A DNA stretch of 64,000 nucleotides. Source: a plasmid. The notes under the pieces were generated by a model. That model saw nothing but the letters and a program-made list of their open reading frames with translations, was not told the DNA's origin and did not search any database. A program made the translations under genes and the position numbers. Position 1 is the first letter of the stretch. Each line of letters starts with the position of its first letter. The DNA is taken from the sequence record NZ_KX443399.1; one strand, 5' to 3'. Shown here in pieces: positions 1,491-14,310 of the stretch.

Positions 1491-1501
1491 GGGAGGCAAT
1501 C

Positions 1502-2322: not shown

Positions 2323-2364
2323 GGTCGTCTCCTCTCTCGGGTGGGACGTGTCATGTGTGCTGGG

Positions 2365-2643
2365 TCAGGCCGCGTTTTCGTCGATCCAGGGTTCGTCGTC
2401 GCGGTCCTCGACGTAGTCGCCGCCGGGCGGGTCGTCGTAGTGGCCCCGCAGCGCGGCCCGCGCCTTCTCGGATGCGGCCGCCAGGTTCTCGTCCCGGGCG
2501 TGCTTCCAGTCCTCCCAGTGCCAACCCGCGCCCGCGTCGATCACGAACTCGGTCGCGTCGATCGGCTCGCCGCCGAGGAACGCCTCGATACGGGCAGGAC
2601 CGTCCGGGTCGCGGACGACGATGATTTCCAGTTCAGGGGTCAA
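2365..2643 (-). CDS. hypothetical acidic protein (92 aa)
   Basis: TTG start with GAGAGGAG RBS; protein-like composition. Confidence 0.55.
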   Translation of the reverse strand: MTPELEIIVVRDPDGPARIEAFLGGEPIDATEFVIDAGAGWHWEDWKHARDENLAAASEKARAALRGHYDDPPGGDYVEDRDDEPWIDENAA

Positions 2644-2675
2644 TCCGTGCTCCTCTCGATCGGTGGGGTCGGTGG

Positions 2676-3005
2676 TCAGCTCGCGGCCTTCAGCTCCTCG
2701 CGGTAGTAGCGGCTCGAGCGCCAGATCACCTGGCGGAAGTCGACGCCGAGGGCGTCGGCCAGGTGCCGGAGGTCGCCGACGAGGTCGGTGATCGCGGTTT
2801 CGAAGTCGTCGGTCTCGGTGCCGCAGCCCTTCGCGTACGGGGCCAGGGCGGAAACCAGGCTCATTGCCCGTACGGCGCGCGATTCCGCCGGATCGGCCAC
2901 GTCGTCCGGGGCGGGCAGATCGACGGTCTGGGAGGCGTTCAGGGCGATCAGGTCCGCGATCGTGGAGACGGCGGCGAGCTTGGCGGCGTAGGTGGTGTCG
3001 GTCAT
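2676..3005 (-). CDS. hypothetical protein (109 aa)
   Basis: ATG with GAGAGGAACC RBS. Confidence 0.6.
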   Translation of the reverse strand: MTDTTYAAKLAAVSTIADLIALNASQTVDLPAPDDVADPAESRAVRAMSLVSALAPYAKGCGTETDDFETAITDLVGDLRHLADALGVDFRQVIWRSSRYYREELKAAS

Positions 3006-3077
3006 TCGGTGGTTCCTCTCGTCAGGTGGTGGTCGGTAGGGGCCGGGCCGCCGGGGTGGGCGGCCCGGCCCGGGCGG

Positions 3078-3395
3078 TCAGTTCTTCGTAACCGTGTAGC
3101 CGAGGGCGTCGGCGAGCATGTGCATCAGTTCCTCACCGTCGGGCCGCTCGGCGTGGTGCATCCGGGTGCGGACCGCGTCGCATTCCTGCGGCTTCTCGCA
3201 CTGGCACTCGGAGTTGATGACCTCGTCGTCGAGCTCGAGCGAGGACCCGAAGCTGGCCGGGTCGATGACCCACTTGTCGGTGTCGGCGAGGTCGCGCATC
3301 AGGTAGACGCGCACCGCGCCCTCGACGTAGTGGCTGCCGCGCTCGACGGCATGGTCGGACGGGTGGACGAACGCGGGGGCGGTCAGAGTCGACAT
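3078..3395 (-). CDS. hypothetical Cys-containing protein (105 aa)
   Basis: ATG with AGAGAGAAGGAACC RBS; CQCEKPQEC motif. Confidence 0.6.
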   Translation of the reverse strand: MSTLTAPAFVHPSDHAVERGSHYVEGAVRVYLMRDLADTDKWVIDPASFGSSLELDDEVINSECQCEKPQECDAVRTRMHHAERPDGEELMHMLADALGYTVTKN

Positions 3396-3469
3396 GAGGT
3401 TCCTTCTCTCTGCGTGTTTCGCCGGTGGGGAGTTGGTGGCCCCGCCCTTGTGGGGCGGGGCCGTCGGGC

Positions 3470-3616
3470 CTACATGTAGGCGACCTCGTCGTCGGTCAGC
3501 TGGCGACCGGCGGTCAGTTCCACCAGTTCACGCTTGGCCGCGACGAACTCGTCGTGGTCGTCGCCGCCGATGGCCGCCTGGTAGCGCTCGCGGGCCTGCT
3601 CGATTTCCTTGGACAT
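3470..3616 (-). CDS. small hypothetical protein (48 aa), first gene of minus-strand operon
   Basis: ATG with AAGGGGGACA RBS directly downstream of conserved promoter; below track cutoff. Confidence 0.5.
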   Translation of the reverse strand: MSKEIEQARERYQAAIGGDDHDEFVAAKRELVELTAGRQLTDDEVAYM

Positions 3617-3644
3617 GTTGTCCCCCTTTCGTCGGCACTCCTTA

Positions 3645-3675
3645 ACCTTACAGGTATCACTTGTAATGTTGCAAC
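3645..3675 (-). promoter_or_regulatory. Conserved promoter copy 1: -35 TTGCAA, 18-nt conserved spacer (CATTACAAG...CCTG), -10 TAAGGT (TANNNT)
   Basis: GTTGCAACATTACAAG block shared with copies at 7684-7714 and 13895-13926, each ~35-45 nt upstream of a minus-strand operon start. Confidence 0.5.
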
Positions 3676-3796
3676 TCGGGAGGTTGCCGGTGTCGCCCGG
3701 CGAGCCTTCACCTTTCGCGCAGCTCCCCGACGGACCTGGCCGGCACTTGCGCCGGCCCCTCGCCGGGACGTGTCATCTGTACAGGTCAGGGCGCAA

Positions 3797-3830
3797 AAAG
3801 GCCCCCGCGCCCATGTGGGGCGCGGGGGCG
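3797..3830. terminator. GC-rich hairpin (GGCCCCCGCGCCC/GGGCGCGGGGGC) following a 25-bp motif copy; bidirectional terminator candidate
   Basis: perfect 12-13 bp stem between convergent/serial minus-strand genes. Confidence 0.5.
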
Positions 3831-3860
3831 GATGGCCGGGAACGGCCTACGCGAGAACGG

Positions 3861-4340
3861 TCACGACCCGAACAGCGAGGCCGAGCCGAACGGCGACGAC
3901 GGCGCGGACACGCTGACGAAAGTCGGCGCGGTGGTGGCGGACTGGCTCCAGGCCATCTCAGTACCCCAGACGCCGACGTGCAGCCTCCGGCATCCCCACT
4001 CGACCTGGTAGTCGCCGTCTGCCACGTTTCGGATCTGAAGCTGGCTGACTCCAGGCGTGAGCGTCACGGGCACGAACTCGCGGTTCACGAACCCGACCGA
4101 GTACAGCAACGACACCTTGTCGACGTCCTCGATGGTCGAGCCAGGTTCCACAAGGAATGCGCCACATTCGATGTCGCCACCGGCGTTGTTGGTGACCGCC
4201 AGCGTGACGGTGCTGCCCTTGGCAGTGGCGACGACACTGACGTCTTCCGGTGCCGCCCCGGCGGTACCCGCAGACAGCAACGCCAGAGGCGCTGCGGCCG
4301 CCACAGCCGCAAGCGCCGAACGAACCATGATTCGAGTCAT
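3861..4340 (-). CDS. secreted protein with N-terminal signal peptide (159 aa)
   Basis: MTRIMVRSALAAVAAAAPLALLSAGTAGA signal; flanked by motif+hairpin modules. Confidence 0.7.
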   Translation of the reverse strand: MTRIMVRSALAAVAAAAPLALLSAGTAGAAPEDVSVVATAKGSTVTLAVTNNAGGDIECGAFLVEPGSTIEDVDKVSLLYSVGFVNREFVPVTLTPGVSQLQIRNVADGDYQVEWGCRRLHVGVWGTEMAWSQSATTAPTFVSVSAPSSPFGSASLFGS

Positions 4341-4443
4341 CGGGCAAGGATGCCACTCACACGCCGGTCACCTGCCGAAACTCCCTGGCCATTGCGCCGG
4401 CCCCTCGCCGGGACGTGTCATCTGTGCAGGTCAGGGCATGAAT

Positions 4444-4478
4444 GCGGCCCCTGCGCGGGGGAGGTGCGCAGGGGCCGC
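4444..4478. terminator. GC-rich hairpin (GCGGCCCCTGCGC/GCGCAGGGGCCGC) adjacent to motif copy
   Basis: 13-bp stem downstream of minus gene ending 4498. Confidence 0.5.
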
Positions 4479-4497
4479 GGGCTTCAGTGCCAGGCCG

Positions 4498-4767
4498 TCA
4501 GGCGGTCGGGTCGAACTTCACGTGGACGACGGTTTCCGTATCGGCGGCACGCAGGCATCGGTCCAGCGCGTCACGCAGGGCGGCTGCGCGTTCGGGCGTG
4601 AGCTCGAGGGTGGGTTCATCGCCGTACCAGGGACTCTCGGGGTCAGTGTGGAGACCGAAAGCAATCTGCACTTTCCGGCCCCGCCCCAGCCCGGTGCGGT
4701 CACTGCGGCTGAGCGCACGGACGTCGGCGCGGTCGTCGAACGTCTCACCGTCGACGGTGACGGCCAT
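4498..4767 (-). CDS. hypothetical protein (89 aa)
   Basis: protein-like C-terminal segment of track ORF 4498-5844; internal ATG at 4767 just after stop of upstream XRE-like frame. Confidence 0.45.
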   Translation of the reverse strand: MAVTVDGETFDDRADVRALSRSDRTGLGRGRKVQIAFGLHTDPESPWYGDEPTLELTPERAAALRDALDRCLRAADTETVVHVKFDPTA

Positions 4768-4800
4768 GTCGACGGATTCGGCGTGCACGATCCTGCGGGT

Positions 4801-5266
4801 CACCGGAGGGAATCCTGCCCGGTCACGGCGTGGACTGCCGCCGGTTCGAACGACAGGATGGCCAACCCCTTGATCCCGTGTGTCGGCCGCTTCTCGTGGT
4901 GCCGGGGCTCGGCGTCGGGGTGGGTGAGGGTGCGCACCCGCACGCCCAGCAGCCGCGCCAGGGCCACGGTCTGCTCCCAGCTCGGATAGAGGCTGCCCGC
5001 CTCCCAGCGGTCGACGGCGGGCTCCTGCGCTCCGCACGCGATGTCGACGGACGGTCCGACGTGGTGGCCCGCGTCGAGCAGGCCGGTGGTACCAGGGGAC
5101 GAGCTTTCCCGCCTTCCACAGCTCGTGCTCGTCGTCGTCCGGCTCGGCGAAGGGCTGCGCGTCGAAGTCGGTCGAGAACGCCCGCAGGCGGTCGCGTTCG
5201 GCGTCCGACGCCGATGCCACCGGCTGCCCCATGACCGGGTCCGGGGTCGCGGGTCTGCGGCGCAGG
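4801..5266 (-). pseudogene. XRE-family HTH gene with apparent frameshift (N-terminal in one frame, HTH ...VDRWEAGSLYPSWEQTVALARLLGV in the -1/+2 frame)
   Basis: HTH_3-like sequence only readable in a frame different from the GTG/RBS-initiated N-terminus; junction near 5085-5095 (..KLVPW / GTTGLLDAGHH..). Confidence 0.35.
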
Positions 5267-5309
5267 AACTTGAACACGGGCACTCCTCTCAGGTGGTTGC
5301 GGGCGCGCG

Positions 5310-5747
5310 CTACGCGCTGCGGCGGGCGTGGGCCTGCACAGCGGCTTCGCGCAGGACCCAGGTGTCGCCGACGCGGGTAGCGGGCAGCTTCTTGGTGTTG
5401 ATGGCCTTCAGGACGCCCTGGCGGCTCACACCGAGCGTGGTGGCCGCTTCGGTGACGGAGACGAGCGGGGGCAGCTCGATCGCGTCGGTGATGCGGTCGT
5501 AGTCGTCGGTGGTGAGCACGCGCAGGGACAGCAGCGTGAACGGGTAGCGGTCGAGGATGGCCAGGGCGGTGGTGTTGGCCTGGCGGACGGATTCGGCGGG
5601 CAGGGTGAACACGACCTCGGTGCGGCCGAGTTCGGAGCGTCCGACCGAGCCGGAGTGGTCGGCGATGGGCTCCATGAGCTGGTCGACGGTCTGCTCGTCG
5701 AACGCGACGTCGAGTTCTGCGGCGACGTTGTAGGACTGTGCGGTCAC
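5310..5747 (-). CDS. DNA-binding protein with C-terminal HTH (excisionase/MerR-like), 145 aa
   Basis: ...VSVTEAATTLGVSRQGVLKAINTKKLPATRVGDTWVL; GTG with GAAAGGACCGAAGAG RBS. Confidence 0.6.
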   Translation of the reverse strand: MTAQSYNVAAELDVAFDEQTVDQLMEPIADHSGSVGRSELGRTEVVFTLPAESVRQANTTALAILDRYPFTLLSLRVLTTDDYDRITDAIELPPLVSVTEAATTLGVSRQGVLKAINTKKLPATRVGDTWVLREAAVQAHARRSA

Positions 5748-5848
5748 TTCTCTTCGGTCCTTTCTGCGTTTCGTGGTGAGGTGCGCGGTTTGGTTGGATG
5801 AGTCCGGGCCGGGGGTGATTCCTGCACCCCCGGCCCTTTCTCATGCGT

Positions 5849-6085
5849 TCAGTGCCGTGGTGGCCACTGGAACCCGGTCTGGCGCTTGATCTGCGCCAGG
5901 GCGTTCTTGAAGGCTCGCCGGTCGCTGGCCGTTTTCGAGAACGTGGTGATCACTTTCCCGTCCTTGCGGACGATCGGGTGACCCGCCGATGTAGCGCCGA
6001 TCTCGAATCCGGCCTTCTCGAGTGCCTTCAGGACTTCCCGGGTGTCCCGGTCGATTCCCTTGAACTTCTGCGGCAATCCTCGCAC
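5849..6085 (-). CDS. HicA-like (YcfA family) putative mRNA-interferase toxin, 78 aa
   Basis: VLKALEKAGFEIGATSAGHPIVRKDGKVITTFSKTASDRRAFKNALAQIKRQTG resembles HicA consensus (..aLek.Gw...GSHh.f.hp.k.g.vtvP....dl..gtlksIlkqAGl). Confidence 0.5.
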   Translation of the reverse strand: MRGLPQKFKGIDRDTREVLKALEKAGFEIGATSAGHPIVRKDGKVITTFSKTASDRRAFKNALAQIKRQTGFQWPPRH

Positions 6086-6095
6086 CTCTCTGTTT

Positions 6096-6136
6096 AGTTG
6101 ACAACCTGATCATAGCTTGCAGGTTGTTGATTGGCA
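6096..6136 (-). promoter_or_regulatory. Putative promoter (-35 TTGCCA / 17 nt / -10 TATGAT) overlapped by inverted repeat CAACAACCTG...CAGGTTGTCAAC (operator candidate) upstream of hicA-like gene
   Basis: read on minus strand; IR arms bracket the -10. Confidence 0.4.
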
Positions 6137-6277
6137 ACCATTGACGCGAAGAGCAGCCGCGACCTGGGATTTCTGGGGGCCGGCGCAGCGCCGGCGGTCG
6201 CGCGCGGGAGGCCGCCGGACAGCACGAAGGGGGCTCCCCTCGCCAGGTGGAGCCCCCTTCGGATGGCGCGGTGGCCG

Positions 6278-6823
6278 CTACAGGCGGCCCGTGACCGCGC
6301 GGGCGTACTCGCGGGCGATCGGGTGGTCGACGTTCGCCCCGCCGCCGATGTAGGCGGCGGCGATCGTCTCGGGGTCGGTGGGCTTGCCTGCGGCGGTGAG
6401 GCGGTCGACGAGGTCGCAGTCGGCGCCCACGAGGGCGACGACTGCGTCGCCGATGTCGTGCGGGGATGCGGTGCCGCTGAGGTCCGCGTCGACGAGGAAC
6501 GCGGCGGCCGTCTGCGGGGTCAGCTGCGCGGGCCCGGCCTGGCCAGCGGGACCGACTGCGGCGGCGTCGAAGCCGGATTCGGCATCGAGCTGGGCGGCGA
6601 TGAATGCCGGGCTGATCTGCGCGGCCGGGCACAGCAGCGGGGCCGCGTGCACCCACGGGGCGAAGGCGACGGGCACGCGGTCGAGCGCGCGGTCGAGCGC
6701 GCGGTCGAGCGCGCGGCCGGGGGTGTCGGCAGCAGCGGTGGCCGGGGCGGCGAGCAGCGCGGCGGCTGCGGCTCCTGCGGTGGCCGTGGCGAGCGCGGCC
6801 CGGCGGGCGGTGGTCGAGAACAT
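6278..6823 (-). CDS. secreted lytic transglycosylase (SLT domain), contains RALDRALDRALD tandem repeat
   Basis: signal peptide; ...AQLDAESGFDAAAVGPAGQAGPAQLTPQTAAAF SLT motif; GAAAGGAT RBS. Confidence 0.8.
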   Translation of the reverse strand: MFSTTARRAALATATAGAAAAALLAAPATAAADTPGRALDRALDRALDRVPVAFAPWVHAAPLLCPAAQISPAFIAAQLDAESGFDAAAVGPAGQAGPAQLTPQTAAAFLVDADLSGTASPHDIGDAVVALVGADCDLVDRLTAAGKPTDPETIAAAYIGGGANVDHPIAREYARAVTGRL

Positions 6824-6897
6824 GCGGATCCTTTCGGTGGGCGATCAACCAGCGTCGCCGGTGCCGGGGTTCCGGCACCAGCGGGTGGTCGGCGCTT

Positions 6898-7377
6898 CTA
6901 CACGCGGAAGTTGTGGACGCGAACGCGCTCGGGGGCACCGTCGGGGCCGCCGAAGCCCCGCGCCCGCACCGCCGTGCGGGCCTCGGCCGGGACGGCGGCC
7001 TCGTGGCCGCTGGCGGCGTAGCGGTGTTCGGTATCGAGCGCGTACAGGCCCATCTCGTAGTCGTAGGCGACCGGGTGCAGGTACCAGCTGATTCCCTGCG
7101 GGGTGCCGAGCCAGCCCTTGACGTGGCGCGTGCGGCTGGTGCCGTCGCGCTCGACGACGGTGACCGGGGTGGCCCACTCCACCGAGACCAGCGCGTAGAG
7201 CGGTGCGCCGATCACGCCGGTCGCGGCGGCCGCGCTGTGCGCGCCGGCGAAGGGCTGCACGAGCGCGCCCCGCTCGGGGTGACGCGGGAAGCCGTGGACG
7301 TAGCCGACGACGAGCGCGGTGGCCCCGTCGATCTCGGTGGCGAATCCGGTGGGGAGCACGGTGGCGGCGAAAGTCAT
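6898..7377 (-). CDS. hypothetical protein (159 aa)
   Basis: ATG with AGAGGAGGT RBS. Confidence 0.7.
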   Translation of the reverse strand: MTFAATVLPTGFATEIDGATALVVGYVHGFPRHPERGALVQPFAGAHSAAAATGVIGAPLYALVSVEWATPVTVVERDGTSRTRHVKGWLGTPQGISWYLHPVAYDYEMGLYALDTEHRYAASGHEAAVPAEARTAVRARGFGGPDGAPERVRVHNFRV

Positions 7378-7425
7378 GGTGACCTCCTCTGTCGGGGTGG
7401 ATGTTTCAGGCGTCAGACGGGCCGG

Positions 7426-7635
7426 TCAGGCGGCAGCAGCGGCCAGCAGGTGACCCGGAATCGCGGTGATGTCGACGGCATCGACGCCCTCGAGCGTGCG
7501 GCCGTCGGCCAGCGTCACGTCGGCGGTCATCCCGCTGTCGTTCGTGGCGATGCCGGAGATTTCGACGATGTCACCGATGATCGACTCACCGGCGAGGTTG
7601 AGGGTAACGAGCTGTGCGGCAGAGGTATTCAGCAT
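7426..7635 (-). CDS. small hypothetical protein (69 aa)
   Basis: internal ATG of track ORF with GAAGGAGT RBS, ~40 nt downstream of conserved promoter copy 2. Confidence 0.55.
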   Translation of the reverse strand: MLNTSAAQLVTLNLAGESIIGDIVEISGIATNDSGMTADVTLADGRTLEGVDAVDITAIPGHLLAAAAA

Positions 7636-7683
7636 TTCCGTACTCCTTCGTTGCGGTGTTTCCGACAAGACGAACGTTACAGG

Positions 7684-7714
7684 TAGTGCTTGTAATGTTG
7701 CAACCTGGGAATCA
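7684..7714 (-). promoter_or_regulatory. Conserved promoter copy 2: -35 TTGCAA / 18 nt / -10 TAACGT
   Basis: same GTTGCAACATTACAAG block as copies 1 and 3. Confidence 0.5.
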
Positions 7715-7737
7715 CGGCACGGGAGGCCAACTACGCG

Positions 7738-7888
7738 CCGGGACGTGTCATCTGCGCAGGTCGCACACGGTTTCGGGATGTGTTGGCGGAGACGAAAATT
7801 GCCGAGCAACGAGAGCGTGTCTCGATGCTCGGCAATGACCGATCAGGCGGGCCGGCTACCGGCCGGGACGTGTCATCTGCGCAGGTAG
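7738..7888. repeat. ~150-bp composite element copy A: 25-bp motif - imperfect long hairpin (ATTGCCGAGCA...TGCTCGGCAAT) - 25-bp motif
   Basis: near-identical to 8549-8702; the two copies flank lipoprotein gene 7899-8477. Confidence 0.8.
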
Positions 7889-7898
7889 AAGCGTGTTT

Positions 7899-8477
7899 CT
7901 AGGGCCACTCAGGGTTGGTCCAGTAGGGCGGGATCTCGCTGGCCAGGCCCTCGGCAGTCCTGGTGCCGTTGCTGCTCTGGTTGCAGGGCCCGGACCAGCC
8001 GACGCGCACAGTCGGGCCGTCGGCGTAGTGGAAGGTCGTCCACACGAGCGTCTCCGGGTCACCGATGGACGGCCCTCCGCATCGGCGTGGATTCGCCGGA
8101 CTCGCGCCTGCATTGAACGCGGCGACGACGGCGGCCAGGTCCGCGCCGTCGATACGCCCCGACGCCGCGAGCGGCGGCAGGGGCGGCGTCTGTTCTCCGC
8201 CGGGCTTGTCGTAGCGGCACACCTCGGCGAACAGCGGTGTGTCCGGAACCATCGCCTCGGCGGTGCCGGGACGCGCGAGCCCGAACTCCCATGACGGCCC
8301 GGCCGAGCAATCGACTTCGGTTGTCTCGGTTTCGAACATGGTGACGTCAACGCTCTTCGTCGGTTGGTCGTCGTCGTTGTCGCTTGCGCACCCGGTCAGT
8401 GCCAGCGCGATTCCCGCGCCCGCGCACAGCGCCGCTGCTGTCAGGACGCGGCCGGATGCTCTCGTTGTTTCCCCCAT
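7899..8477 (-). CDS. lipoprotein (192 aa)
   Basis: signal + lipobox ALTGC. Confidence 0.7.
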   Translation of the reverse strand: MGETTRASGRVLTAAALCAGAGIALALTGCASDNDDDQPTKSVDVTMFETETTEVDCSAGPSWEFGLARPGTAEAMVPDTPLFAEVCRYDKPGGEQTPPLPPLAASGRIDGADLAAVVAAFNAGASPANPRRCGGPSIGDPETLVWTTFHYADGPTVRVGWSGPCNQSSNGTRTAEGLASEIPPYWTNPEWP

Positions 8478-8548
8478 GCCCCGCAGACTACGAGCCGCCG
8501 CGTTGTCGTCGGCAGAAGATCGAGGCCGACCCGCGTGCGACCCGTCGG

Positions 8549-8702
8549 CCGGGACGTGTCATCTGACCTGGTCGCGCAGGGTTTCGGGATGTGTTGGCGG
8601 AGACGAAAATTGCCGAGCAGCGAGAGTGTGTCTCGATGCTCGGCAATGGGCGATCAGGTGGGGCCGGCTACCGGCCGGGACGTGTCATGTGCACAGGTCA
8701 GG
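8549..8702. repeat. ~150-bp composite element copy B (motif-hairpin-motif)
   Basis: few mismatches vs 7738-7888. Confidence 0.8.
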
Positions 8703-9021
8703 ACTTCTTTTTTCGGCCCATCATGGAGGCGATGAGCGCGAAGCCGAACCAACTGATGGCCGTGCCGCCGATCAGTCCTCCTAGTCCCCAGGTGAGAACG
8801 TCGCCCGGCCATTCCAGTCCGGATACCGAGGTTCCGGGGGCCTCGGTGGGGAACCAGGGGAAGTAGGCCAGTTTCACCGAGCCGGCGATCAGGGCGGCAC
8901 CGGCCCCGGCCAGCCACGCGAGTCCCCCGACGATGGCGAGCACCATTCCGATCAGTTCGAGGGGTTCGACCGCTGCGCGCGGTGCCGGTCGAGGAGCTGC
9001 GACGGTTTGTGCGTCGTTCAT
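8698..9021 (-). CDS. small membrane protein (107 aa)
   Basis: two hydrophobic helices; GAAAGGACT RBS; stop codon supplied by the GGTCAG end of a motif copy. Confidence 0.7.
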   Translation of the reverse strand: MNDAQTVAAPRPAPRAAVEPLELIGMVLAIVGGLAWLAGAGAALIAGSVKLAYFPWFPTEAPGTSVSGLEWPGDVLTWGLGGLIGGTAISWFGFALIASMMGRKKKS

Positions 9022-9107
9022 GGGAGTCCTTTCGGGGTGGGCGTCGTCGGGGCGATCCGATCCGGGACGTGTCGTCTCCGCTTTTCAGGGCATGTTTTCG
9101 GCGATGC

Positions 9108-10301
9108 TCATGCGTGGTTGTCGTCGGGGCCGGCGGGCAGTTCATGCAGCGCGGTGAGGTCGCCGGTGAGGATCTGGAGTCGGGTAGTGATGGCGGCGTG
9201 GAGGTCTCGGGCGTCGGCGGTGAGCCGGTCGAGGTGGCGCACGGTCAGCTCGTCGCCGCCGGTCTGGCGGACAAGGTTCCCGAGGTGGCTGCTGGCGGTG
9301 AGGGATCGTTCGACGGCCTGGAGGGCGAGGTAGTCGGTGTTCAGGGCAGACAGCTCGGCCGCGTACCGGTAGAGGGCGGCGACGCGGCGGGTCAGTGACG
9401 CGGTCACGGTGTCCAGGATCTGCTCGTTTCCGGCGCGCTGGATGCGTGCGCGGAGCGCGGCGTCGCCGTCGCCGTCCGGGGTGGGTCCGAGTGCGTCACG
9501 GGCGCGGCTGATCTCGGTCGCGTGCGCGGTGATCTGCGCGGCTTCGGCGTCGGGGTCGAGCTGGATGCGGTGCACGCTCAGGTCGTCCGACGCCCAGGCC
9601 GGGCAGGCGGTGATCTGGGCGGCGAGCGCGGCGGCGATCTGCGCGAGCTGGTGCTCGGGGGTGCCGGGTTCGGGGCCGGGCTCGGCGACGGTGGCGTGTT
9701 CGAGGGCCCAGTAGTCGGGGCCGCTCAATGCGAGGTCGGCGCGGTTCTCGGCGCGTTCCTCCGCGACTGCGGCGAACAGAAGCGCCCAGGCCAGGGCCGC
9801 GATCGCGGCGATGGTCGACGGCGAAGGTTCCAGCGGGCCGAACAGCATGGCCGCGGCGAGCCCGACCGCGACGACTGCGAGCAGGTTCCGCAGGGTGGCG
9901 AGTCGGCCGCTGGCGTGGAAGGCGTCGACGAACCTGTCGAGCATGGAGTCCGTCCGGCCGCTGGTGTCCTCGGTGTGGGGCAGCTGGGCACGTAGCGCGT
10001 CGCGCTGCCGCCTGGTGAGCGCCGAGCCGGTCAGCGCGTCGGAGGTCGATGAATCGGGGGCGGCGATCGCACTGGCGTTGTGGGCGTGCCGGGGCACCGG
10101 CAGGCCCTGTGCTTCGCGGCGGACGAGTTTGGCCGCCAGCGCCTTCGGCAGGCGGGTGCGGTCGATCGTCGATTGCTGCGGCAGCGGGACCGGGTCGATC
10201 GGGGCGGCGAGCAGTTCGTTGATGCGGGTCTCGGACGCGGTGACGCGGTCGTCGGCACCGGTCAGGGCCGCTTGTGCGTCAGTGAGCCAGTCGCGGGCCA
10301 C
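9108..10301 (-). CDS. membrane protein (~397 aa), coiled-coil/TM
   Basis: GTG with GGAG RBS; TM segments LLAVVAVGLAAAMLFGPL.../IAAIAALAWALLFAAVA; upstream part of track ORF is Arg-rich junk. Confidence 0.6.
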   Translation of the reverse strand: MARDWLTDAQAALTGADDRVTASETRINELLAAPIDPVPLPQQSTIDRTRLPKALAAKLVRREAQGLPVPRHAHNASAIAAPDSSTSDALTGSALTRRQRDALRAQLPHTEDTSGRTDSMLDRFVDAFHASGRLATLRNLLAVVAVGLAAAMLFGPLEPSPSTIAAIAALAWALLFAAVAEERAENRADLALSGPDYWALEHATVAEPGPEPGTPEHQLAQIAAALAAQITACPAWASDDLSVHRIQLDPDAEAAQITAHATEISRARDALGPTPDGDGDAALRARIQRAGNEQILDTVTASLTRRVAALYRYAAELSALNTDYLALQAVERSLTASSHLGNLVRQTGGDELTVRHLDRLTADARDLHAAITTRLQILTGDLTALHELPAGPDDNHA

Positions 10302-10303
10302 TG

Positions 10304-10504
10304 CTACGGCTCCAGGCCGACAAGGAACGGAACACCGTAGACAGCCGCGAGGAGCAGCACCATCCCGGTCAGGAGCGTGAGCCAGAAACCCCGCCGGTCC
10401 TTCACCCGATCCTCGAACGTTGAGACGAGGAGCCAGATCAATCCCCCCTCGTGCGCCTGCGTCTGAGCGCTGGTGTTCTGTCGTTCGATGTTCTGCTGGT
10501 CCAT
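10304..10504 (-). CDS. small membrane protein (66 aa)
   Basis: GAGGGGGGA RBS; translationally coupled to downstream gene. Confidence 0.6.
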   Translation of the reverse strand: MDQQNIERQNTSAQTQAHEGGLIWLLVSTFEDRVKDRRGFWLTLLTGMVLLLAAVYGVPFLVGLEP

Positions 10505-10540
10505 GAGTCCCCCCTCGGGTCCGGTGTTCGGTGTAGATGG

Positions 10541-11128
10541 TCATGCGGGCCGCGTCCATTCGAGGGCCGCGAGGTCGGGGCGGCCGTCGGCGAGGAGCGC
10601 GAGCAGCGCGCGGGTGGCGCGGACATCAGCGAGGGCGCGGTGGCCGCCGTCGAGGCGGAGACGGCCATCGGTGCCGAGTCCGAGAGCCTGGCAGCGGCGG
10701 GCCATCACGCAGTGCCAGCGCGCGGGGTCGAACAGGTGCGCCGGGTCGATGCCCGCGCGGCGGCAGTCGTGCAGGACCCGGTCGCGGTCGAATGCCGCGT
10801 TGTATGCGAGCACCTTCCGCGTCGCGGTGATCGCGGCGAGGCGGGCGTGGACCTGCGGCCAACTCGGTGCCCCGGCTAGGTCAGCGGCGGTGAGCCCGTG
10901 CACGGCGTGCGCGTCGGGGTGGATCGGTGCGCCGTCGGGGTCGACAAGGGTGTCGAGCAGGACCTCACCGGTAGCGGCGTCGATGACTGCGACCTCGATG
11001 ATCGAGCCGTCGAGGCCGGTGGTTTCGGTGTCGAGGATGCAGGCCACACCCGGCGCGAGCATCGCGTTCGCCCACTGGCGGGGCGTCAGGGTGAACGTGG
11101 GCACTGCATCCTCCTCGGTCCCGAACAT
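10541..11128 (-). CDS. DEDD-family 3'-5' exonuclease (DnaQ/epsilon-like)
   Basis: Exo I motif ILDTETTGLD; Exo III HRALADVRAT. Confidence 0.85.
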   Translation of the reverse strand: MFGTEEDAVPTFTLTPRQWANAMLAPGVACILDTETTGLDGSIIEVAVIDAATGEVLLDTLVDPDGAPIHPDAHAVHGLTAADLAGAPSWPQVHARLAAITATRKVLAYNAAFDRDRVLHDCRRAGIDPAHLFDPARWHCVMARRCQALGLGTDGRLRLDGGHRALADVRATRALLALLADGRPDLAALEWTRPA

Positions 11129-11134
11129 GGTCCC

Positions 11135-11425
11135 CTACCCCTCCGACACCGTGGCTGCCTGTTCGGCGAGGTGGTAGCCCTTGCCGGACGGGGTGGTGTG
11201 CAAGCTGTCGACCTTGATGCTGACCACGCGGCCCGGCGCGGTGACCTCACCGGTCTCCTGGTTGTGCGCGGAGATGACGGTGCAGATCGCGGCGGTGCCG
11301 AGCGCGCCGGCGTCCTCGAGGCCGTCGACGCGCAGGGTGCGGCGCACGGTGCGGGCGGGGTTGTCGAGCCAGAGCTGGCCGACGCGGATCTCGTCGCCGT
11401 GGCGGTTGGTGGTGGTGTCGGACAT
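11135..11425 (-). CDS. hypothetical protein (96 aa)
   Basis: ATG with GAGGAGAA RBS; upstream part of track ORF 11135-12112 is junk. Confidence 0.7.
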   Translation of the reverse strand: MSDTTTNRHGDEIRVGQLWLDNPARTVRRTLRVDGLEDAGALGTAAICTVISAHNQETGEVTAPGRVVSIKVDSLHTTPSGKGYHLAEQAATVSEG

Positions 11426-11502
11426 GGGTTCTCCTCGGATCGGTTCGGGTAGGTGGGGCCAGGGCGCCCGGGGTGGGCGCTCCTGGCAGCTGTGGCGGGT
11501 TG

Positions 11503-12189
11503 TCAGGCCGGGGTGGGCCTCTTGTGCTTGCGGAGGTTGCCGATCGACGTCACGGACGCGACGCCGCCGCACGCGCCGCACCAGGCGTAGCGGCCTCGGG
11601 TCTTCCACTCGCGCATGCGCTTGTGGCTGCACATGGTCGGGTCCTCTTCCTTGGCCGGCCCGACGGTCCACTCGACCGGGGCGCTGGGGAAGCAGTGGGT
11701 GCACAGCAGCGGGCCGTGCGCGGTGACGGCGTCGGCTTCGGTGTCGCCGGACAGGTCCGGGAGCCATCCGAGCCGGGTGGACGGGCGCAGGGTGTGGCAG
11801 TAGGGGTTGGCGTGGATGTGGCCACGGTCGACGAGGTAGTAGCGGGGCCACGGGTTCGCGCGGTAGGGGGCTTCGGCGGTCTCGATCTCGGCGGTGATCA
11901 CGGCCCGCTCGTCGCGGTACTGGGAGACCCGGTCGATCAGGTAGGCGTAGTCCCGCAGGCGGGGAGCCGGATTCGGGGCGTCGAGCAGGCCCACCAGGCG
12001 CTCGTACGCGTCGATGTCGGTCAGCGCCCACCGGCTGCGGGTGACCTGGCGGTCGTCGATGGCGTGGTGGATCGAGCGGTAGGTGGCGTCGAGCCGGTCG
12101 ACGATCTCCCAACGGCGCGCGTGCAGGTCGGCGAGCGCGCGGTCGACGGTCTTCGGGTCGATCGCGGTGGCGGTCGTGGCGGTGGTCAT
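11503..12189 (-). CDS. hypothetical Cys-containing protein (228 aa)
   Basis: GAGAGGA RBS; CHTL...CTHC...CSHK...CGAC Cys pairs. Confidence 0.75.
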   Translation of the reverse strand: MTTATTATAIDPKTVDRALADLHARRWEIVDRLDATYRSIHHAIDDRQVTRSRWALTDIDAYERLVGLLDAPNPAPRLRDYAYLIDRVSQYRDERAVITAEIETAEAPYRANPWPRYYLVDRGHIHANPYCHTLRPSTRLGWLPDLSGDTEADAVTAHGPLLCTHCFPSAPVEWTVGPAKEEDPTMCSHKRMREWKTRGRYAWCGACGGVASVTSIGNLRKHKRPTPA

Positions 12190-12281
12190 GGCGCGGTCCT
12201 CTCAGGGAAGTCCGGATGTCGGTGTCGCTGTGGGGCGCTCCCCCGGGCGCCCTCGGTGGGCGCCCGGGAGGTGCGCGGCGG

Positions 12282-13319
12282 TCAGGCCGCGTCGGTCTCG
12301 CTGCTGGTCTCGGGCTCGGTGGTGCGCTGGCCGTCGACGATGCGGACGGGGCGGGCGTCGGCGTCGCGCAGGCCGCGGATCTCGGCGTAGGCGATGCGGT
12401 CGGTCCAGCTGCCGCCGACGATCGAACGGATGCTGACGGTCTTCGCGTTGACCTTCATCACCTCGTTCCACTGGCCGACGTAGAACACGTGGTCGCCCTT
12501 GGCGAGGACGTCGGCGCTGTAGGGGGTGGCCTTGCCGTCGGCGATCTGCTGGGCGCGTACGCCCTGCCAGTAGGCCAGTTCCTCGGCGGTGTGCTCGATC
12601 TCGGCCAGCACCCGCTCGCGGTACTCGCCTCCGGCCGGGGCGTGGTCCTCGGTGTACTTCTCGCCGGTCTGCTTGTTCGTGTGCAGGGTGCGCGAGTAGC
12701 CGTCGCGGGTGCGCTCGAGGCGCTTGAGCTCGGCGGCGAGCTTGTCGATGCGGCGGGCCACGGTCACCGGCGCGTAGCGGTGGTCGGTGGTCTTGGCGGC
12801 GGCGTCGGCGCGGCCCCGGGCGGTGGCGGCCTCACGCTCGGACTGCACGGCCTTGCCGAGTGCGTTCCAGGACTTCTCGACGGCGCGGCGGTGCCGGCCC
12901 TCGCTGTGGTGGCCGACCTTGATCGGTTCGCCGCCCTCGGGCAGCGCGGCGTGCGCGGCCTTCTCGGCGGCCCAGGCGGATTCGGCGGCCCCGGCCTTGC
13001 GGTCGGCCTTCGCGTCGAGGGCGTCGACGCGGCCCTGCTGGCGGGCGATCTTGTCGGCCTCGACCTCGGCGACCTCGCGGTAGGTGTCGTCGATCTCGAT
13101 CTCGACGGTGAACCCGGCGGCGCGCAGCGCGGCTGCGGTCGCGTTGATCTGGGCGAGCTTCGCGCGGCGGTCCCGCGTGTTCTGGATGTACCAGGAGCCG
13201 AGATTGCGGGACCAGCGCCAGCGCTGGGCCTTCAGGATCTTCCCGGAGCCGTCGCCGCGCGCGGTTCCGTCGATCAGGGTGCCGTCGGCGTGGGTATGGG
13301 TGATGGTCAGTGCGGACAT
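12282..13319 (-). CDS. DUF3560-like protein (345 aa)
   Basis: N-terminal ...ADGTLIDGTARGDGSGKILKAQRWRWSRNLGSWY typical of DUF3560 proteins of actinobacterial plasmids; GAAAGGTAAGGA RBS. Confidence 0.8.
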   Translation of the reverse strand: MSALTITHTHADGTLIDGTARGDGSGKILKAQRWRWSRNLGSWYIQNTRDRRAKLAQINATAAALRAAGFTVEIEIDDTYREVAEVEADKIARQQGRVDALDAKADRKAGAAESAWAAEKAAHAALPEGGEPIKVGHHSEGRHRRAVEKSWNALGKAVQSEREAATARGRADAAAKTTDHRYAPVTVARRIDKLAAELKRLERTRDGYSRTLHTNKQTGEKYTEDHAPAGGEYRERVLAEIEHTAEELAYWQGVRAQQIADGKATPYSADVLAKGDHVFYVGQWNEVMKVNAKTVSIRSIVGGSWTDRIAYAEIRGLRDADARPVRIVDGQRTTEPETSSETDAA

Positions 13320-13367
13320 GCGCGGTCCTTACCTTTCGTCAGATGTGCAGGTCAGGGGCGGCGCGGG

Positions 13368-13859
13368 TCAGCGGATGAACCGCCAGGCCGAGCGCGCGAC
13401 GCGTGCCCCTGGGACGGTGCGGGAGGCGAGATTTCCGGCGGCCTTCGCGGCGCGCTTGCCGTAGACCACGCCGCGCGAGGGGCCAGCAGCCTTGGCCGGG
13501 GCCTTAGCCTCGCGGGCCGGGCGCTCGATGCGAGCGGCCCGGTTCTCACGGCGAGCCTCGCGGTACTCGGCACCGCCCACGGGGTCGATGTAGCGCAGCG
13601 GCGTGTGGACCACGACGTTCTCCGCCAGACGCGAGCGCCAGAATCGGCGCTGGTAGGCGAACAGGAAGTGACCGGCCAGCCAGATCACCGCACCGATGAC
13701 CAGCCACGGCGCGCGGACCGCAATCGGGTCACCCATGACGATGAACGCGAGCGAGCTGACGACCATCAGTGCGCCACCGAAGCGGGCGATCGGTGCGCCG
13801 ATCTTCCAGACAAGCAGACCCGCGAGGGCGAGAGCGGCAAAAACGGCGATGATCGACAT
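13368..13859 (-). CDS. membrane protein (163 aa), first gene of long minus-strand operon
   Basis: GGAAGGGGA RBS immediately downstream of conserved promoter copy 3. Confidence 0.7.
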   Translation of the reverse strand: MSIIAVFAALALAGLLVWKIGAPIARFGGALMVVSSLAFIVMGDPIAVRAPWLVIGAVIWLAGHFLFAYQRRFWRSRLAENVVVHTPLRYIDPVGGAEYREARRENRAARIERPAREAKAPAKAAGPSRGVVYGKRAAKAAGNLASRTVPGARVARSAWRFIR

Positions 13860-13894
13860 TCGGTTTCCCCTTCCGTGGCGCAACTTCCGAGAAC

Positions 13895-13926
13895 TACATT
13901 ACAGGCCCTGCTTGTAATGTTGCAAC
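13895..13926 (-). promoter_or_regulatory. Conserved promoter copy 3: -35 TTGCAA / 18 nt / -10 TAATGT; divergent with HTH gene at 14053
   Basis: GTTGCAACATTACAAG block. Confidence 0.5.
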
Positions 13927-14052
13927 CCGAGAGGGTTCCGTGTGTTGCGGCACGCGTTTCCTACGAAGCAAGCCCCACATGTAAAGTTCTCGGCATTCAG
14001 CGACCGACGCGGCGACGGCGGCGCCAACGACGAAAGGAAGGTGACACGAGAG

Positions 14053-14310
14053 ATGGCGAACCCGAACCGCATCACTGCCCAGCAGGTCATCGAACTGATC
14101 AAGGAACTGACCGGCGACGAGATCAAGGTGAACACCTTCTACGGCTACGTCAGCCGTGGCCAAGCACCGAAGGCCGTGGAGAAGATCGGCAACACGTCGC
14201 TGTGGAAGAAGAGCGAGATCACCGAGTGGGCCCTCAACCGGCCAGGCCGCGGCGCCCGCACCGACCTACCCAAGACGCGCCGACGCACCAAAGACACTGA
14301 TTCGGAGTGA
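14053..14310 (+). CDS. small HTH DNA-binding protein (excisionase/AlpA/MerR-like), 85 aa
   Basis: GAAAGGAAGG RBS; ITAQQVIELIKELTGDEIKVNTFYGYVSRGQAPKAVEKIGNTSLWKKSEITEWALNR. Confidence 0.65.
   Translation: MANPNRITAQQVIELIKELTGDEIKVNTFYGYVSRGQAPKAVEKIGNTSLWKKSEITEWALNRPGRGARTDLPKTRRRTKDTDSE

Follow-up and report, generated by a model that had tools for sequence, protein, structure and literature searches.

Stoperators of cluster A mycobacteriophages, reportedly the sites of the L5 repressor gp71 (as Brown et al. are said to have described in 1997), are asymmetric, protein-site-sized elements found in tens of copies, nearly all intergenic on an actinobacterial mobile element and biased in orientation by genome arm. 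In each of these respects they resemble the 24-nucleotide (nt) motif, termed M, that we analyzed here. Integron attC sites and the 120-bp Vibrio repeats (VCR) resemble the ~125- to 150-bp composites that M forms with imperfect hairpins; they lie directly after or overlap the stop codons of single genes, and attC arrays keep one orientation irrespective of gene direction, with a cassette content that varies among close relatives. The XerC/D-type pdif sites of Acinetobacter are likewise short conserved sites that bracket accessory modules on plasmids without a recombinase of their own, and pdif modules, like cassettes bounded by M, are found in differing contexts. Phage morons, like the lipoprotein gene described below, have their own -10 element and terminator, are inserted between backbone genes, and are missing in close relatives; unlike the lipoprotein cassette, they have no conserved repeated motif at their borders. 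BIME/REP elements and mycobacterial MIRUs are interspersed intergenic repeats built as mosaics of motifs and hairpins, as is the case for M and its composites, and MIRU-like overlaps of start and stop codons occur at two M copies. M differs from these repeats in having no palindrome and no GTAG/RAYT association, in not being tandem, and in being plasmid specific.

The 64-kb stretch of DNA analyzed, hereafter the window, comes from Prescottella (Rhodococcus) equi and forms the left part of a linear virulence plasmid of the pVAPN type. P. equi isolates from ruminants and humans have pVAPN as their virulence plasmid, and the relatives of pVAPN are large catabolic Rhodococcus linear plasmids (pRHL1-3, pBD2, pNSL1, and the PD630 and B4 plasmids), in which accessory-gene shuffling is, to our knowledge, poorly understood. 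Within the window, direct repeats at positions 7737 to 7851 and 8548 to 8662 were 91% identical and ungapped, and BLAST stretched the match to 151 nt at ~91% identity. The initial annotation had described 7738 to 7888 and 8549 to 8702 as near-identical; the repeats are real, and at 91% identity that wording is slightly generous. Repeat and motif analyses bore out its description of both copies, here E1 and E2, as motif-hairpin-motif composites that bracket a minus-strand lipoprotein gene. The motif CCGGGACGTGTCATCTGCGCAGGT is found on the plus strand of E1 without mismatches at 7738 to 7761, where the gene (minus) strand reads ACCTGCGCAGATGACACGTCCCGG, and at 7863 to 7886, 12 nt past the lipoprotein stop codon. 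In E2, the plus-strand motifs have three mismatches at 8549 to 8572, the other end of an 811-bp indel, and two at 8675 to 8698, where the last three bases, TCA, are the minus-strand TGA stop codon of gene 8698 to 9021.

Between the two motifs of each composite is a hairpin of the form ATTGCCGAGCA.CGAGA-loop-TCTCG.TGCTCGGCAAT (7798 to 7836 in E1 and 8609 to 8647 in E2), with 17-nt arms that are 94% complementary. Folding of the minus-strand RNA gave -34 kcal/mol (z = -3.6) for E1 and -31.5 kcal/mol (z = -4.5) for E2, with UUUUCG directly after both hairpins. Together with its U-run at 7792 to 7797, the E1 hairpin (7792 to 7836, minus strand) looks like the intrinsic terminator of the lipoprotein gene, and the E2 hairpin with its U-run (8603 to 8647, minus strand) looks like the terminator of gene 8698 to 9021. 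On the minus coding strand, each 150-bp copy forms a single boundary module between genes, in the order of the upstream gene's stop codon, M, a small perfect hairpin (GGCCGG-TAG-CCGGCC after the M copy at 7863 to 7886), a C-rich spacer, the strong hairpin with its U-run, a second M, and the promoter of the next gene. E is conserved over ~150 nt in seven copies on five replicons, and substitutions across the seven copies are confined to the loop and one internal mismatch.

The lipoprotein gene itself (7899 to 8477, minus strand) encodes 192 amino acids with a signal peptide and the lipobox LALTGC (LTGC), and is a single-gene cassette that some pVAPN plasmids have and others do not. A -10-like hexamer read from the sequence, TAGTCT (8485 to 8490, minus strand), lies 7 nt upstream of its ATG and also occurs in contig L137 and in L135, which suggests that the gene has a leaderless promoter of its own. 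On the other side of E1, gene 7426 to 7635 has a sigma-A-like promoter of its own in front of it, together with an inverted-repeat operator, TTGCAACATTACAAG-N5-CCTGTAA (7677 to 7703, minus strand), so the composite is not the promoter of that gene. A single gene between two direct repeats is the pattern expected from an ordinary local duplication, and either this or chance similarity would leave the repeats without wider meaning. However, the repeat consists of the 150-bp element only and is not part of a larger tandem duplication, as the lipoprotein gene is present once and not doubled. Furthermore, E1 is 98% identical to the copy on pVAPN1572, whereas E2 shares the variants of the pVAPN94-27 copy, indicating different histories of the two composites, and the motif is found dozens of times in several genera. 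Local duplication or chance thus has a negligible probability and is already refuted.

The composite is a modular intergenic element, as proposed initially, but it is not the basic unit. That unit is M, an asymmetric two-block motif with the form GGGACGTGTCRT-N5-CWGGTCA; both motifs of the previously reported pair are present in each copy, with a length of 24 nt rather than 25 bp. A logo of 134 non-redundant M copies contained two conserved blocks and a spacer that is also conserved, with no dyad symmetry and no recognizable crossover spacer. The 12-nt core GGGACGTGTCRT occurs 23 times with up to one mismatch versus 1.56 times expected, and the distribution of position weight matrix scores was bimodal: 22 copies reached at least 20 bits, and hardly any scored in between. 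These 22 strong copies are in the 64-kb window; the whole plasmid pVAPN94-27 has 37, with none in its vap pathogenicity island (53 to 76 kb). Twenty of the 22 are intergenic in a window that is 79% coding (P = 5e-12).

The further motif-hairpin-motif modules and single motif-hairpin pairs that had been listed are all real, with M in plus orientation throughout. At 3765 to 3829, M (3765 to 3788) is followed by a hairpin (3801 to 3829), and the minus strand reads as a hairpin with UUUUU, a canonical terminator, and then M. The pair at 4410 to 4478 consists of M (4410 to 4433) and a hairpin at 4444 to 4478. Composite C3 (15040 to 15165) contains a degenerate M (15040 to 15063), a hairpin (15086 to 15120), and an M copy at 15142 to 15165 that supplies, with its TCA, the stop codon of gene 15163 to 15516; C3 sits in a hypervariable insertion hotspot. 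That gene is bracketed by C3 and C4 (15531 to 15654), in which two M copies flank a hairpin at 15573 to 15622 and the TCA of the second M is the stop of gene 15652 to 16173. In the module at 32001 to 32197 (hairpin 32035 to 32076), M and the genes share direction, with the first M directly after the stop codon of an M23 peptidase gene and the second 34 nt ahead of the next gene's start; both positions are kept in R. triatomae, Rhodococcus SMB37, and N. pseudovaccinii. Between convergent genes, 33431 to 33601 contains M, a long hairpin (33498 to 33565), and a weaker M. Other plus-orientation copies include two at 2052 to 2366 (starts 2052 and 2343), the second of which occupies nearly the whole 42-nt gap between two genes, one at 9064 to 9087 between genes 8698 to 9021 and 9108 to 10559, and one at 39794 to 39817, 14 nt past the rep stop codon. 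Five copies lie in 50699 to 54345 around an ADP-ribosyltransferase/ADP-ribosylglycohydrolase operon, three of them in minus orientation (50699 to 50722, 52991 to 53014, and 54322 to 54345) and two in plus orientation (50801 to 50824, overlapping a leaderless promoter, and 53857 to 53880, inside a coding sequence).

The RNA structure prediction that the initial annotation had proposed as a check indicated that the composite hairpins fold stably (z-scores of -3.6 to -6.3; -4.2 to -6.3 for the modules other than E1 and E2). The hairpins also differ between composites as described, with unrelated sequences except for the C3 and C4 stems, which are related to each other. A GC-rich stem-loop with a U-run, as in intrinsic terminators, is present on the minus strand in E1, E2, and 3801 to 3829; the hairpins at 15573 to 15622 and 4444 to 4478 have no clear U-run. 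The idea that the hairpin is a fixed part of the element did not hold up, since most M copies have no strong hairpin nearby. Hairpins of -30 kcal/mol or below were found within 130 nt of M in 11% of cases on one side and 7% on the other, compared with 5% at control intergenic sites, and we rejected an obligatory partnership because strong hairpins occur near M at only about twice the control frequency.

E might also be viewed as a conserved 3'-untranslated region (UTR)/terminator module, from whose 3' UTR a small RNA containing a C-rich, single-stranded stretch might be derived, with M as an RNA motif for processing or translational coupling. Consistent with this, the two hairpins of E, its CCCCACCUGAUCGG stretch (single stranded), and its U-run are conserved in seven copies; an ATG follows the TGA of M by 12 nt, in frame, in about half of the copies; and mini-ORFs at 2343 and 15531 end in an ATGA overlap with the next gene. 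However, transcription runs opposite for 36% of M copies, ACG replaces ATG in half, and no compensatory changes were seen. We rejected mini-ORF-based translational coupling, as clear overlaps were limited to these two and the ATG position reads ACG in half of the copies. A search of the whole window against Rfam 15 yielded no match reaching the gathering score, and 7600 to 8800 had none with an E value of ≤1; we therefore rejected a known RNA family for the element, and this result also speaks against the RNA reading. Such a reading could account for E but not for M generally, and we regard it as improbable.

M is not limited to one replicon; it is family-wide in plasmids of Mycobacteriales, a point that the initial annotation had missed. 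At least 72 PLSDB plasmids, mostly from Rhodococcus, contain a near-perfect copy, and several Rhodococcus, Nocardia, and Mycolicibacterium contigs have two to five copies per 8 kb. R. ruber plas2 has 24 copies and the Rhodococcus AH-ZY2 plasmid has 30, and on these plasmids M individually brackets accessory genes, for a hydrolase, a PLD-type synthase, a GAF-P450, and a methyltransferase. The carriers are pVAPN/pNSL1-type plasmids of Mycobacteriales that encode TraB, most of them annotated as linear, and orthologous M positions are retained between genera. M is absent from pVAPA1037, a circular relative with the same rep cluster. The region had no phage matches, with viral contigs giving four single hits only, and we therefore discarded a phage origin of the element. 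Our searches of the literature on the M sequence and on repeats of Rhodococcus linear plasmids found no description of M, and comparative genomics of pVAPN plasmids has reported gene indels and not the motif (PMC5434932). M marks most unit boundaries, is conserved across genera above the level of the surrounding genes, and coincides with several cassette joints. It thereby provides a concrete handle for annotating module boundaries, a lead to a candidate global plasmid DNA-binding protein, and a possible mechanism of gene-cassette turnover in actinobacterial linear replicons.

M is positioned at the ends of genes. Of the neighboring stop codons, 28 of 81 lay within 20 nt of M, compared with 4 of 54 start codons (P = 2e-4). 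In at least six cases, the stop codon is the TCA of GGTCA itself, and convergent gaps contained 12 copies versus 3 in divergent gaps. M was antisense to its neighboring genes 61 times and codirectional with them 35 times; due to this mixed orientation, we infer that M acts at the DNA rather than the RNA level. Our preferred proposal, which we hold tentatively and at somewhat less than even confidence, is that M is a protein-recognized boundary site at transcription-unit ends whose direct copies double as cassette-exchange joints. A putative protein of the plasmid backbone would recognize M as double-stranded DNA, and M, judging by its position and by analogy, may delimit or insulate transcription units, acting for instance as a roadblock where genes end. 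The initial suggestion of a terminator flanked by protein-binding sites comes close to this reading. Stoperators offer the precedent of many asymmetric intergenic sites on one replicon, a feature that M shares, and the two cores have GG-N4-TGTCA in common (GGTGGMTGTCAAG versus GGGACGTGTCATC, identical at 7 of 13 positions). Unlike stoperators, M is plasmid borne rather than phage borne, has 24 nt in two blocks instead of 13 to 14 nt, and prefers gene 3' ends and convergent gaps. Its orientation relative to transcription is only ~64% consistent, which is weaker than reported for the phage sites and counts against the boundary-site proposal. No gp71-like repressor was identified among the Pfam and PHROGs matches of the plasmid's HTH proteins, which were only generic XRE/HTH_17 matches.

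The orientation of M also has a component that follows the replicon. From the left telomere to rep on pVAPN94-27, 17 of 17 M copies have one orientation irrespective of gene direction, whereas the other arm is mixed at 10:10 (Fisher P = 6e-4). Similarly, R. ruber plas2 has 7 of 7 copies in one orientation on the corresponding TraB-bearing arm and 8:9 on the other, and neighboring copies are co-oriented in 73% of pairs on other replicons. Orientation on the TraB arm thus tracks the arm and not the genes. These findings raise the possibility, to our minds rather improbable, that M is a replicon-polar DNA signal read by a one-directional tracker and not by the transcription machinery, with a replication fork (at a Ter-like barrier) or the FtsK-like TraB translocase (at a KOPS/SRS-like guide) as candidates. 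Such a signal fits the uniform TraB-arm orientation in two plasmids, including four to five sites with oppositely running genes, and the co-orientation of adjacent pairs elsewhere. TraB was encoded by all M-bearing plasmids examined, circular pVAPA1037 with its type IV-like transfer system has no M, and many PLSDB matches are no more than a few kilobases from linear plasmid ends. However, the other arm is mixed in both plasmids, known translocase guides are 8-mers that are also present in genes whereas M has 24 bp, and Ter sites are few per replicon compared with M at 0.3 per kb. In addition, the sites that separate an arm-relative from a gene-relative reading are a single orthologous locus, so the test of polarity is nearly confounded with gene direction.

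We also considered whether M serves as a promoter that is read by the plasmid's own ECF-type sigma factor or by some other factor, in which case left-arm copies would drive short hairpin RNAs or antisense transcripts. The two-block architecture recalls -35 and -10 elements, and an ECF sigma factor is encoded on the plasmid. M at 32174 and its orthologous sites lie 32 to 34 nt before a start codon, past a strong hairpin (45 nt in N. pseudovaccinii), and at 50801 a true -10 element, TACGAT, replaces the second block 6 nt before an ATG. ECF promoters typically have a spacing of 16 to 18 nt; the block spacing of M, 13 to 15 nt, is too short for them, and the spacer itself is conserved. In one direction, only 23 of 75 cases have M facing a gene start, and in the opposite direction 31 of 60 do; most copies point at gene 3' ends, and convergent gaps are richer in M than divergent ones. 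No TANNNT or Shine-Dalgarno sequence was found at a constant offset from M, the sigma gene has no M upstream, and sigma-A-like promoters are separately present downstream of M, making M dispensable as a promoter. M behaves neither as a promoter nor as a classical operator, and we consider a promoter role very improbable. We specifically rejected an ECF promoter due to the wrong block spacing and the sigma gene having no upstream M, and a sigma-A promoter or operator because no -10, -35, or Shine-Dalgarno element lies at a constant offset from M; the sigma-A-like promoters with their palindromic operator are a distinct 27-nt motif.

Candidate proteins acting at M were also discarded. The tandem-XRE (double HTH_3) regulator beside rep has a homologue on pVAPA1037, which has no M, and its own upstream region has no M-like site. 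An 85-amino-acid regulator (14053 to 14310) was found in all M-bearing plasmids examined, but its gene is divergent from a promoter carrying the palindromic operator, which it more likely binds. The ADP-ribosyltransferase is of the arginine-specific exotoxin type, so we also set aside a DNA-modifying role for it at M.

Comparison with close relatives placed M at cassette joints. As the initial annotation had proposed to test, copy number varies between close strains: a single composite is present on pVAPN94-27, where the lipoprotein gene is missing, which amounts to an indel of 811 bp relative to the window plasmid. What that annotation had missed is the position of the joints inside M. In pVAPN94-27, the left flank of E1 is joined to the body of E2, with the switch inside CCGGGACGTGTCATCTG, the invariant core of M, in the motif at 7738 to 7761. 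Three more single-gene indels are bounded by M: an additional 101-amino-acid gene in contig L137 lies between two M copies that share just ~14 nt, pVAPN1572 has C3 doubled around an Ig-domain gene, and in N. pseudovaccinii, a gene for a Dam-like methyltransferase lies between the two M copies that enclose nothing but a hairpin in the window. In addition, 6 of 26 homology break-points between pVAPN94-27 and pVAPN1572 lay within 30 nt of M, and the homology shared by the telomeres stops at an M copy. The E composite and lipoprotein gene also occur together in another context, on a P. agglutinans plasmid. Because many copies are in direct orientation, the invariant 12- to 17-nt core could serve as the place of cassette insertion and deletion, with exchange proceeding via short-homology or homologous recombination or via a putative recombinase. 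The lipoprotein gene, with its promoter-like -10 element and E1 terminator, is a single-gene cassette between two such modules.

Several observations weaken the cassette-exchange part of the boundary-site proposal. Any repeated 24-mer might passively give rise to deletions like those between M copies, and for the lipoprotein gene, a joint in the core could be mimicked by a crossover at any point of the 151-bp homology followed by mismatch correction. The enrichment of break-points at M was not significant when break-points were restricted to intergenic DNA, and many indels between close relatives are away from M. The comparison of R. ruber plas2 with the AH-ZY2 plasmid revealed no new M-to-M indels.

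The same joints allow a stronger version, possible but in our estimation unlikely, in which M would be dedicated to site-specific recombination and would function as attC does in integrons or pdif in Acinetobacter. Circular single-gene cassettes with one composite, carrying M and a hairpin, would integrate at or excise from the 20 to 40 resident M copies through a putative plasmid- or host-encoded recombinase. A gene between two related composites is the expected product of such Campbell-type integration and was found three times (the E1/E2 lipoprotein gene, gene 15163 to 15516 between C3 and C4, and the Ig-domain gene of pVAPN1572). The joints in the invariant core, one with only ~14 nt of identity, the proximity of M to stop codons as for attC, the uniform orientation on one arm of pVAPN94-27 and R. 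ruber plas2, and the joint move of the E composite and lipoprotein gene into the P. agglutinans plasmid context also point this way. If this version is correct, TraB-type linear plasmids of Rhodococcus, Nocardia, and Mycolicibacterium would possess a cassette system without earlier description, an actinobacterial counterpart of integrons and pdif modules on an asymmetric 24-bp site, and M would offer a new platform for cassettes and might be of use in engineering Rhodococcus. Against it, no integrase, resolvase, or transposase was found among the annotated coding sequences of pVAPN94-27 or R. ruber plas2, M has neither dyad symmetry nor a recognizable crossover spacer, and its orthologous positions across genera fit a housekeeping better than a mobile role. 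The many indels away from M and the lack of a relaxase on 40 of the 72 M-bearing plasmids add to these objections.

The comparison with described recombination sites is likewise divided. M and its composites share with attC a position at the 3' ends of single ORFs, variable content, and a common orientation, but the conserved ends of the composite are direct rather than inverted repeats, with no GTTRRRY core and, given that M has no dyad symmetry, none of the attC inverted-repeat structure (R''-L'' ... L'-R'). Unlike integrons, the M system has no intI, attI, or Pc, its cassettes have their own promoters, and M also occurs without hairpins; no IntI tyrosine recombinase was present among the annotated coding sequences of pVAPN94-27 and R. 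ruber plas2. The 28-bp pdif sites have inverted 11-bp XerC/XerD arms around a 6-bp spacer and alternate in orientation, whereas M is asymmetric, lacks such arms, and is mostly in direct orientation. M is also unlike what we take to be the consensus of the actinobacterial dif site. MobF relaxase- or oriT-type recombination at M was rejected as unlikely, since the 40 of 72 M-bearing PLSDB plasmids without a relaxase include R. ruber plas2. The initial alternative of a small non-autonomous, MITE-like repeat was not supported: the composites have no terminal inverted repeats or short target duplications, no REP palindrome or RAYT association was seen in them, and no transposase is annotated on pVAPN94-27.

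Finally, a variant of the motif, GGGACATGCCATCACCCCAGCTCA, occurs in two plus-orientation copies near the left end of the window (640 to 663 and 1654 to 1677), and telomere-to-telomere homology stops exactly at the start of the first copy, at position 640.

The two copies of composite E, the motif-hairpin-motif element at E1 (7738-7888) and E2 (8549-8702) on either side of the lipoprotein gene, are direct repeats that are 91% identical, and each contains the same 24-mer, hereafter M, twice. The six further modules proposed in the initial annotation were also all present, with unrelated hairpins (z scores of -4.2 to -6.3). The underlying observation is thus real, and it is more general than was first seen. 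A logo built from 134 aligned nonredundant copies of M, drawn from other replicons as well as from the window and the remainder of pVAPN, reads GGGACGTGTC(A/G)T (C/T)T N Y N C(A/T)GGTCA and is followed about 8 nt later by a weak T-rich patch. The 12-nt core of M occurs 23 times in the window versus 1.6 expected, and position-matrix scores are bimodal, separating good M sites from sequences that are not M. Strong copies in the window are intergenic in 20 of 22 cases, while the coding share of the window is 79% (P = 5e-12). The related linear plasmid pVAPN94-27 carries 37 M sites, none of them in the horizontally acquired vap island (53-76 kb). At the DNA level, M is a selected, asymmetric motif of a plasmid family. 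The composite did not hold up as the basic unit, since strong hairpins are only about twice as frequent near M as at control intergenic sites; motif-hairpin-motif is a frequent arrangement.

Positions of M relative to genes were assessed with a codon-usage gene caller, for which 48 of 53 calls in the window agree with annotated stop codons. By these calls, the gene ends next to M are 3' in 81 cases and 5' in 54. Within 20 nt of M there are 28 of these stop codons but only four start codons (P = 2e-4), and at least six stop codons are formed by the TCA of GGTCA. M was found in convergent gaps 12 times versus three times in divergent gaps. M sits where transcription units end, and a terminator-like hairpin is often flanked by M on each side. 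Relative to local genes, 61 copies are antisense and 35 run in the same direction, making an RNA function unlikely and a promoter role hard to sustain; no TANNNT, TTGAC, or Shine-Dalgarno signal was found at a fixed distance from M. Orientation is uniform in the left telomere-rep arm (17/17) versus 10:10 in the other arm (Fisher P = 6e-4). Genes lie on the minus strand from 1.8 to 22 kb, and the uniform arm takes in four M sites at 32-33.6 kb and one at 39.8 kb, where the genes are opposite. The corresponding arm of Rhodococcus ruber plas2 likewise has M in one orientation (7/7). We also observed that at 2343-2366 and 15531-15554 (minus strand) the ATG in M starts a mini-ORF of 9 to 11 codons that ends in a TGA overlapping the next gene's start codon (ATGA); the upstream gene can also end at the TGA with which M begins. 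This arrangement is reminiscent of MIRU-like coupling; however, just these two cases are clear, and in half of all M copies ACG takes the place of the ATG.

Composite E is a boundary module. On the gene strand, it runs from a stop codon through M, a small perfect hairpin (GGCCGG-TAG-CCGGCC), a C-rich single strand, a terminator-like hairpin with a U-run, and about 35 nt to a second M and the promoter of the next gene. The terminator-like hairpin has arms of 17+17 nt followed by UUUUCG on the minus strand and folds at -34 and -31.5 kcal/mol in E1 and E2, respectively (z = -3.6 and -4.5). Among seven copies of this hairpin from five replicons, differences are confined to the loop and one internal mismatch. 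The bracketed ORF (7899-8477, minus strand) contains a lipobox. Its putative promoter element is a TAGTCT hexamer positioned 7 nt upstream of the ATG, and the transcript may therefore be leaderless. In the spacer that separates M from the terminator hairpin (7837-7862 and 8648-8674, minus strand), the 6-bp stem of the small hairpin is perfect and the C-rich single-stranded CCCCACCUGAUCGG is conserved; it is possible that this spacer yields a 3'-UTR-derived small RNA, which could pair with G-rich ribosome-binding sites.

The copy number of composite E varies among close relatives, as pVAPN94-27 and a second Japanese plasmid have a single E without the lipoprotein gene. A four-way alignment revealed that the single E of pVAPN94-27 has its left flank from E1 and its body and right flank from E2; the switch falls within CCGGGACGTGTCATCTG, and the 811-bp difference therefore spans exactly M core to M core. 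The window arrangement also occurs in AP024195 and two metagenome contigs. E1 and the 3' part of the lipoprotein gene (7724-8346) are 98% identical to pVAPN1572, with different surroundings, and a P. agglutinans plasmid carries the block M-E hairpin-M-promoter-lipoprotein gene among other neighboring genes. In a contig of a related plasmid (lipoprotein 82% identical), an extra 101-amino-acid gene between the 3' M of the lipoprotein gene and the hairpin is flanked by two M copies with only about 14 nt in common. In pVAPN1572, composite C3 (15040-15165) is duplicated around an Ig-domain gene, and in N. pseudovaccinii a Dam-like methyltransferase gene lies between two M copies that flank only a hairpin in the window (32001-32197). 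Both M positions in the orthologous gap after the M23 peptidase gene are kept in R. triatomae, Rhodococcus SMB37, and N. pseudovaccinii, with intervening sequence that is not alignable. Telomere-telomere homology stops at the first nucleotide of a variant copy of M. Several single-gene indels, including that of the lipoprotein gene, were joined inside the invariant core of M. Other indels between relatives lie away from M. Between pVAPN94-27 and pVAPN1572, 6 of 26 homology break-points are within 30 nt of M, where about one would be expected genome-wide and about six if all break-points were intergenic.

Two explanations for the M joints may be considered: they were made by a dedicated recombinase, or they arose passively, through exchange between composites that used short homology or depended on RecA. 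No recombinase was found among the annotated genes of pVAPN94-27 and R. ruber plas2. M may be bound by a protein encoded by the plasmid backbone and may delimit or insulate transcription units, and many direct copies would then provide a preferred place for cassette gain and loss. Of the systems already described, phage L5 stoperators (likewise numerous asymmetric intergenic sites) and attC and pdif sites (likewise cassette boundaries) are closest to M in the way it works. However, M lacks the length and strict transcriptional polarity of stoperators, the inverted-repeat structure and IntI of attC, and the dyad Xer arms of pdif. In its behavior, the lipoprotein unit resembles a phage moron. 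A megablast search with 7000-10000 gave no phage matches; its hits were three Prescottella equi pVAPN plasmids, with 97-98% identity.

A search of PLSDB with a 30-nt M query yielded 72 plasmids with near-perfect copies, of which 55 are from Rhodococcus. The matches include pRHL1-3, pBD2, pNSL1, and the plasmids of B4 and PD630, and the copies often lie no more than a few kilobases from linear-record ends. M sites number 24 in R. ruber plas2 and 30 in the Rhodococcus AH-ZY2 plasmid. Scanning one genome per species for the pattern gave many single matches, as expected by chance, along with clusters (two to five copies per 8 kb) on contigs of Rhodococcus, Nocardia, Mycolicibacterium, and Mycobacterium. 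The circular pVAPA1037 has essentially no M; it has a type IV-like transfer system, while the rep cluster, par genes, tandem-XRE regulator, and MobF are shared. The M-bearing plasmids compared have 29 predicted proteins in common that were not found in the 50 kb of pVAPA1037 examined, among them TraB, a ParA-like protein, a VirB4-like ATPase, DUF3560, and many hypothetical proteins. M is a family-wide plasmid signal linked to cassette turnover and is apparently new to the literature; we found no description of it in the literature searched, which is weak evidence of novelty given incomplete coverage.

An ECF sigma factor, the tandem-XRE regulator, a small 85-amino-acid regulator, the MobF relaxase, and an ADP-ribosyltransferase were tested as M binder or mechanism, and none was convincing. 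The tandem-XRE regulator (35657-36088, minus strand; 143 amino acids with two tandem HTH_3 domains) is divergent from the rep operon, and it appears to go with the replication module and not with M, since homologues occur on 223 Mycobacteriales plasmids, including pVAPA1037. A full-strength M at 53857-53880 lies inside the coding sequence of an ADP-ribosylglycohydrolase gene (53205-54287; peptide GDVSSVLVDG), and is retained at the same codons in Rhodococcus sp. T7 but not in more distant homologues (L046 and L097).

The window is colinear over its whole length with the first 62 kb of linear pVAPN94-27 (NZ_AP024188), at about 97% identity over 1-27500 and 99.6-99.9% over 27500-64000. From sequence comparison, the plasmid looks like a recombinant of two pVAPN lineages with a switch near 27.5 kb within conjugation genes. 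The first 600 nt form a telomeric inverted repeat. Next to the telomere, direct repeats of about 70 nt (615-690 and 1629-1700) bracket about 1 kb, and in each the variant motif GGGACATGCCAT precedes a terminator-like hairpin (minus strand); this variant changes G5 to A and T8 to C together and recurs in other genera (L114, L053, L051, and L056). pVAPN1572 (NZ_KX443401.1) and the AH-ZY2 plasmid (NZ_CP126459.1) are recorded as circular in PLSDB but belong to the linear pVAPN/pNSL1 family and have telomere-proximal sequence, so their circular status is probably an assembly or annotation artifact. At the same end, the close relatives R. ruber plas2 (1-9800) and the AH-ZY2 plasmid (1-10500) carry different putative defense islands (a nucleotidyltransferase, ThiF, and MPN on one; SIR2, an ATPase, and TatD on the other), both adjoining a shared type I restriction-modification system.

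A hypervariable spot lies between a small regulator gene (14053-14310) and C3. At 14297-15039, the window has a 708-nt ORF (14307-15014, plus strand) for a membrane/proline-rich protein of 235 amino acids, where pVAPN94-27 has 27 bp (13200-13227) and pVAPN1572 has 3.6 kb with GntR and Ig-domain genes (10823-14427). We also observed a second conserved motif of 27 nt, TTGYMACWTWRCAAG-N5-SYTGTAA, with four copies in the window versus none expected: 3648-3674, 7677-7703, and 13899-13925 on the minus strand and 50587-50613 on the plus strand. Its hexamers (TTGCAA ... TAACGT), which have an imperfect inverted repeat between them, resemble those of a sigma-A-type promoter. All four copies point at a gene, and the promoter of gene 7426-7635 is this separate sigma-A-like element with its inverted-repeat operator. 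The small regulator gene lies divergent to the copy at 13899, and the protein it encodes could plausibly act as the repressor of that copy.
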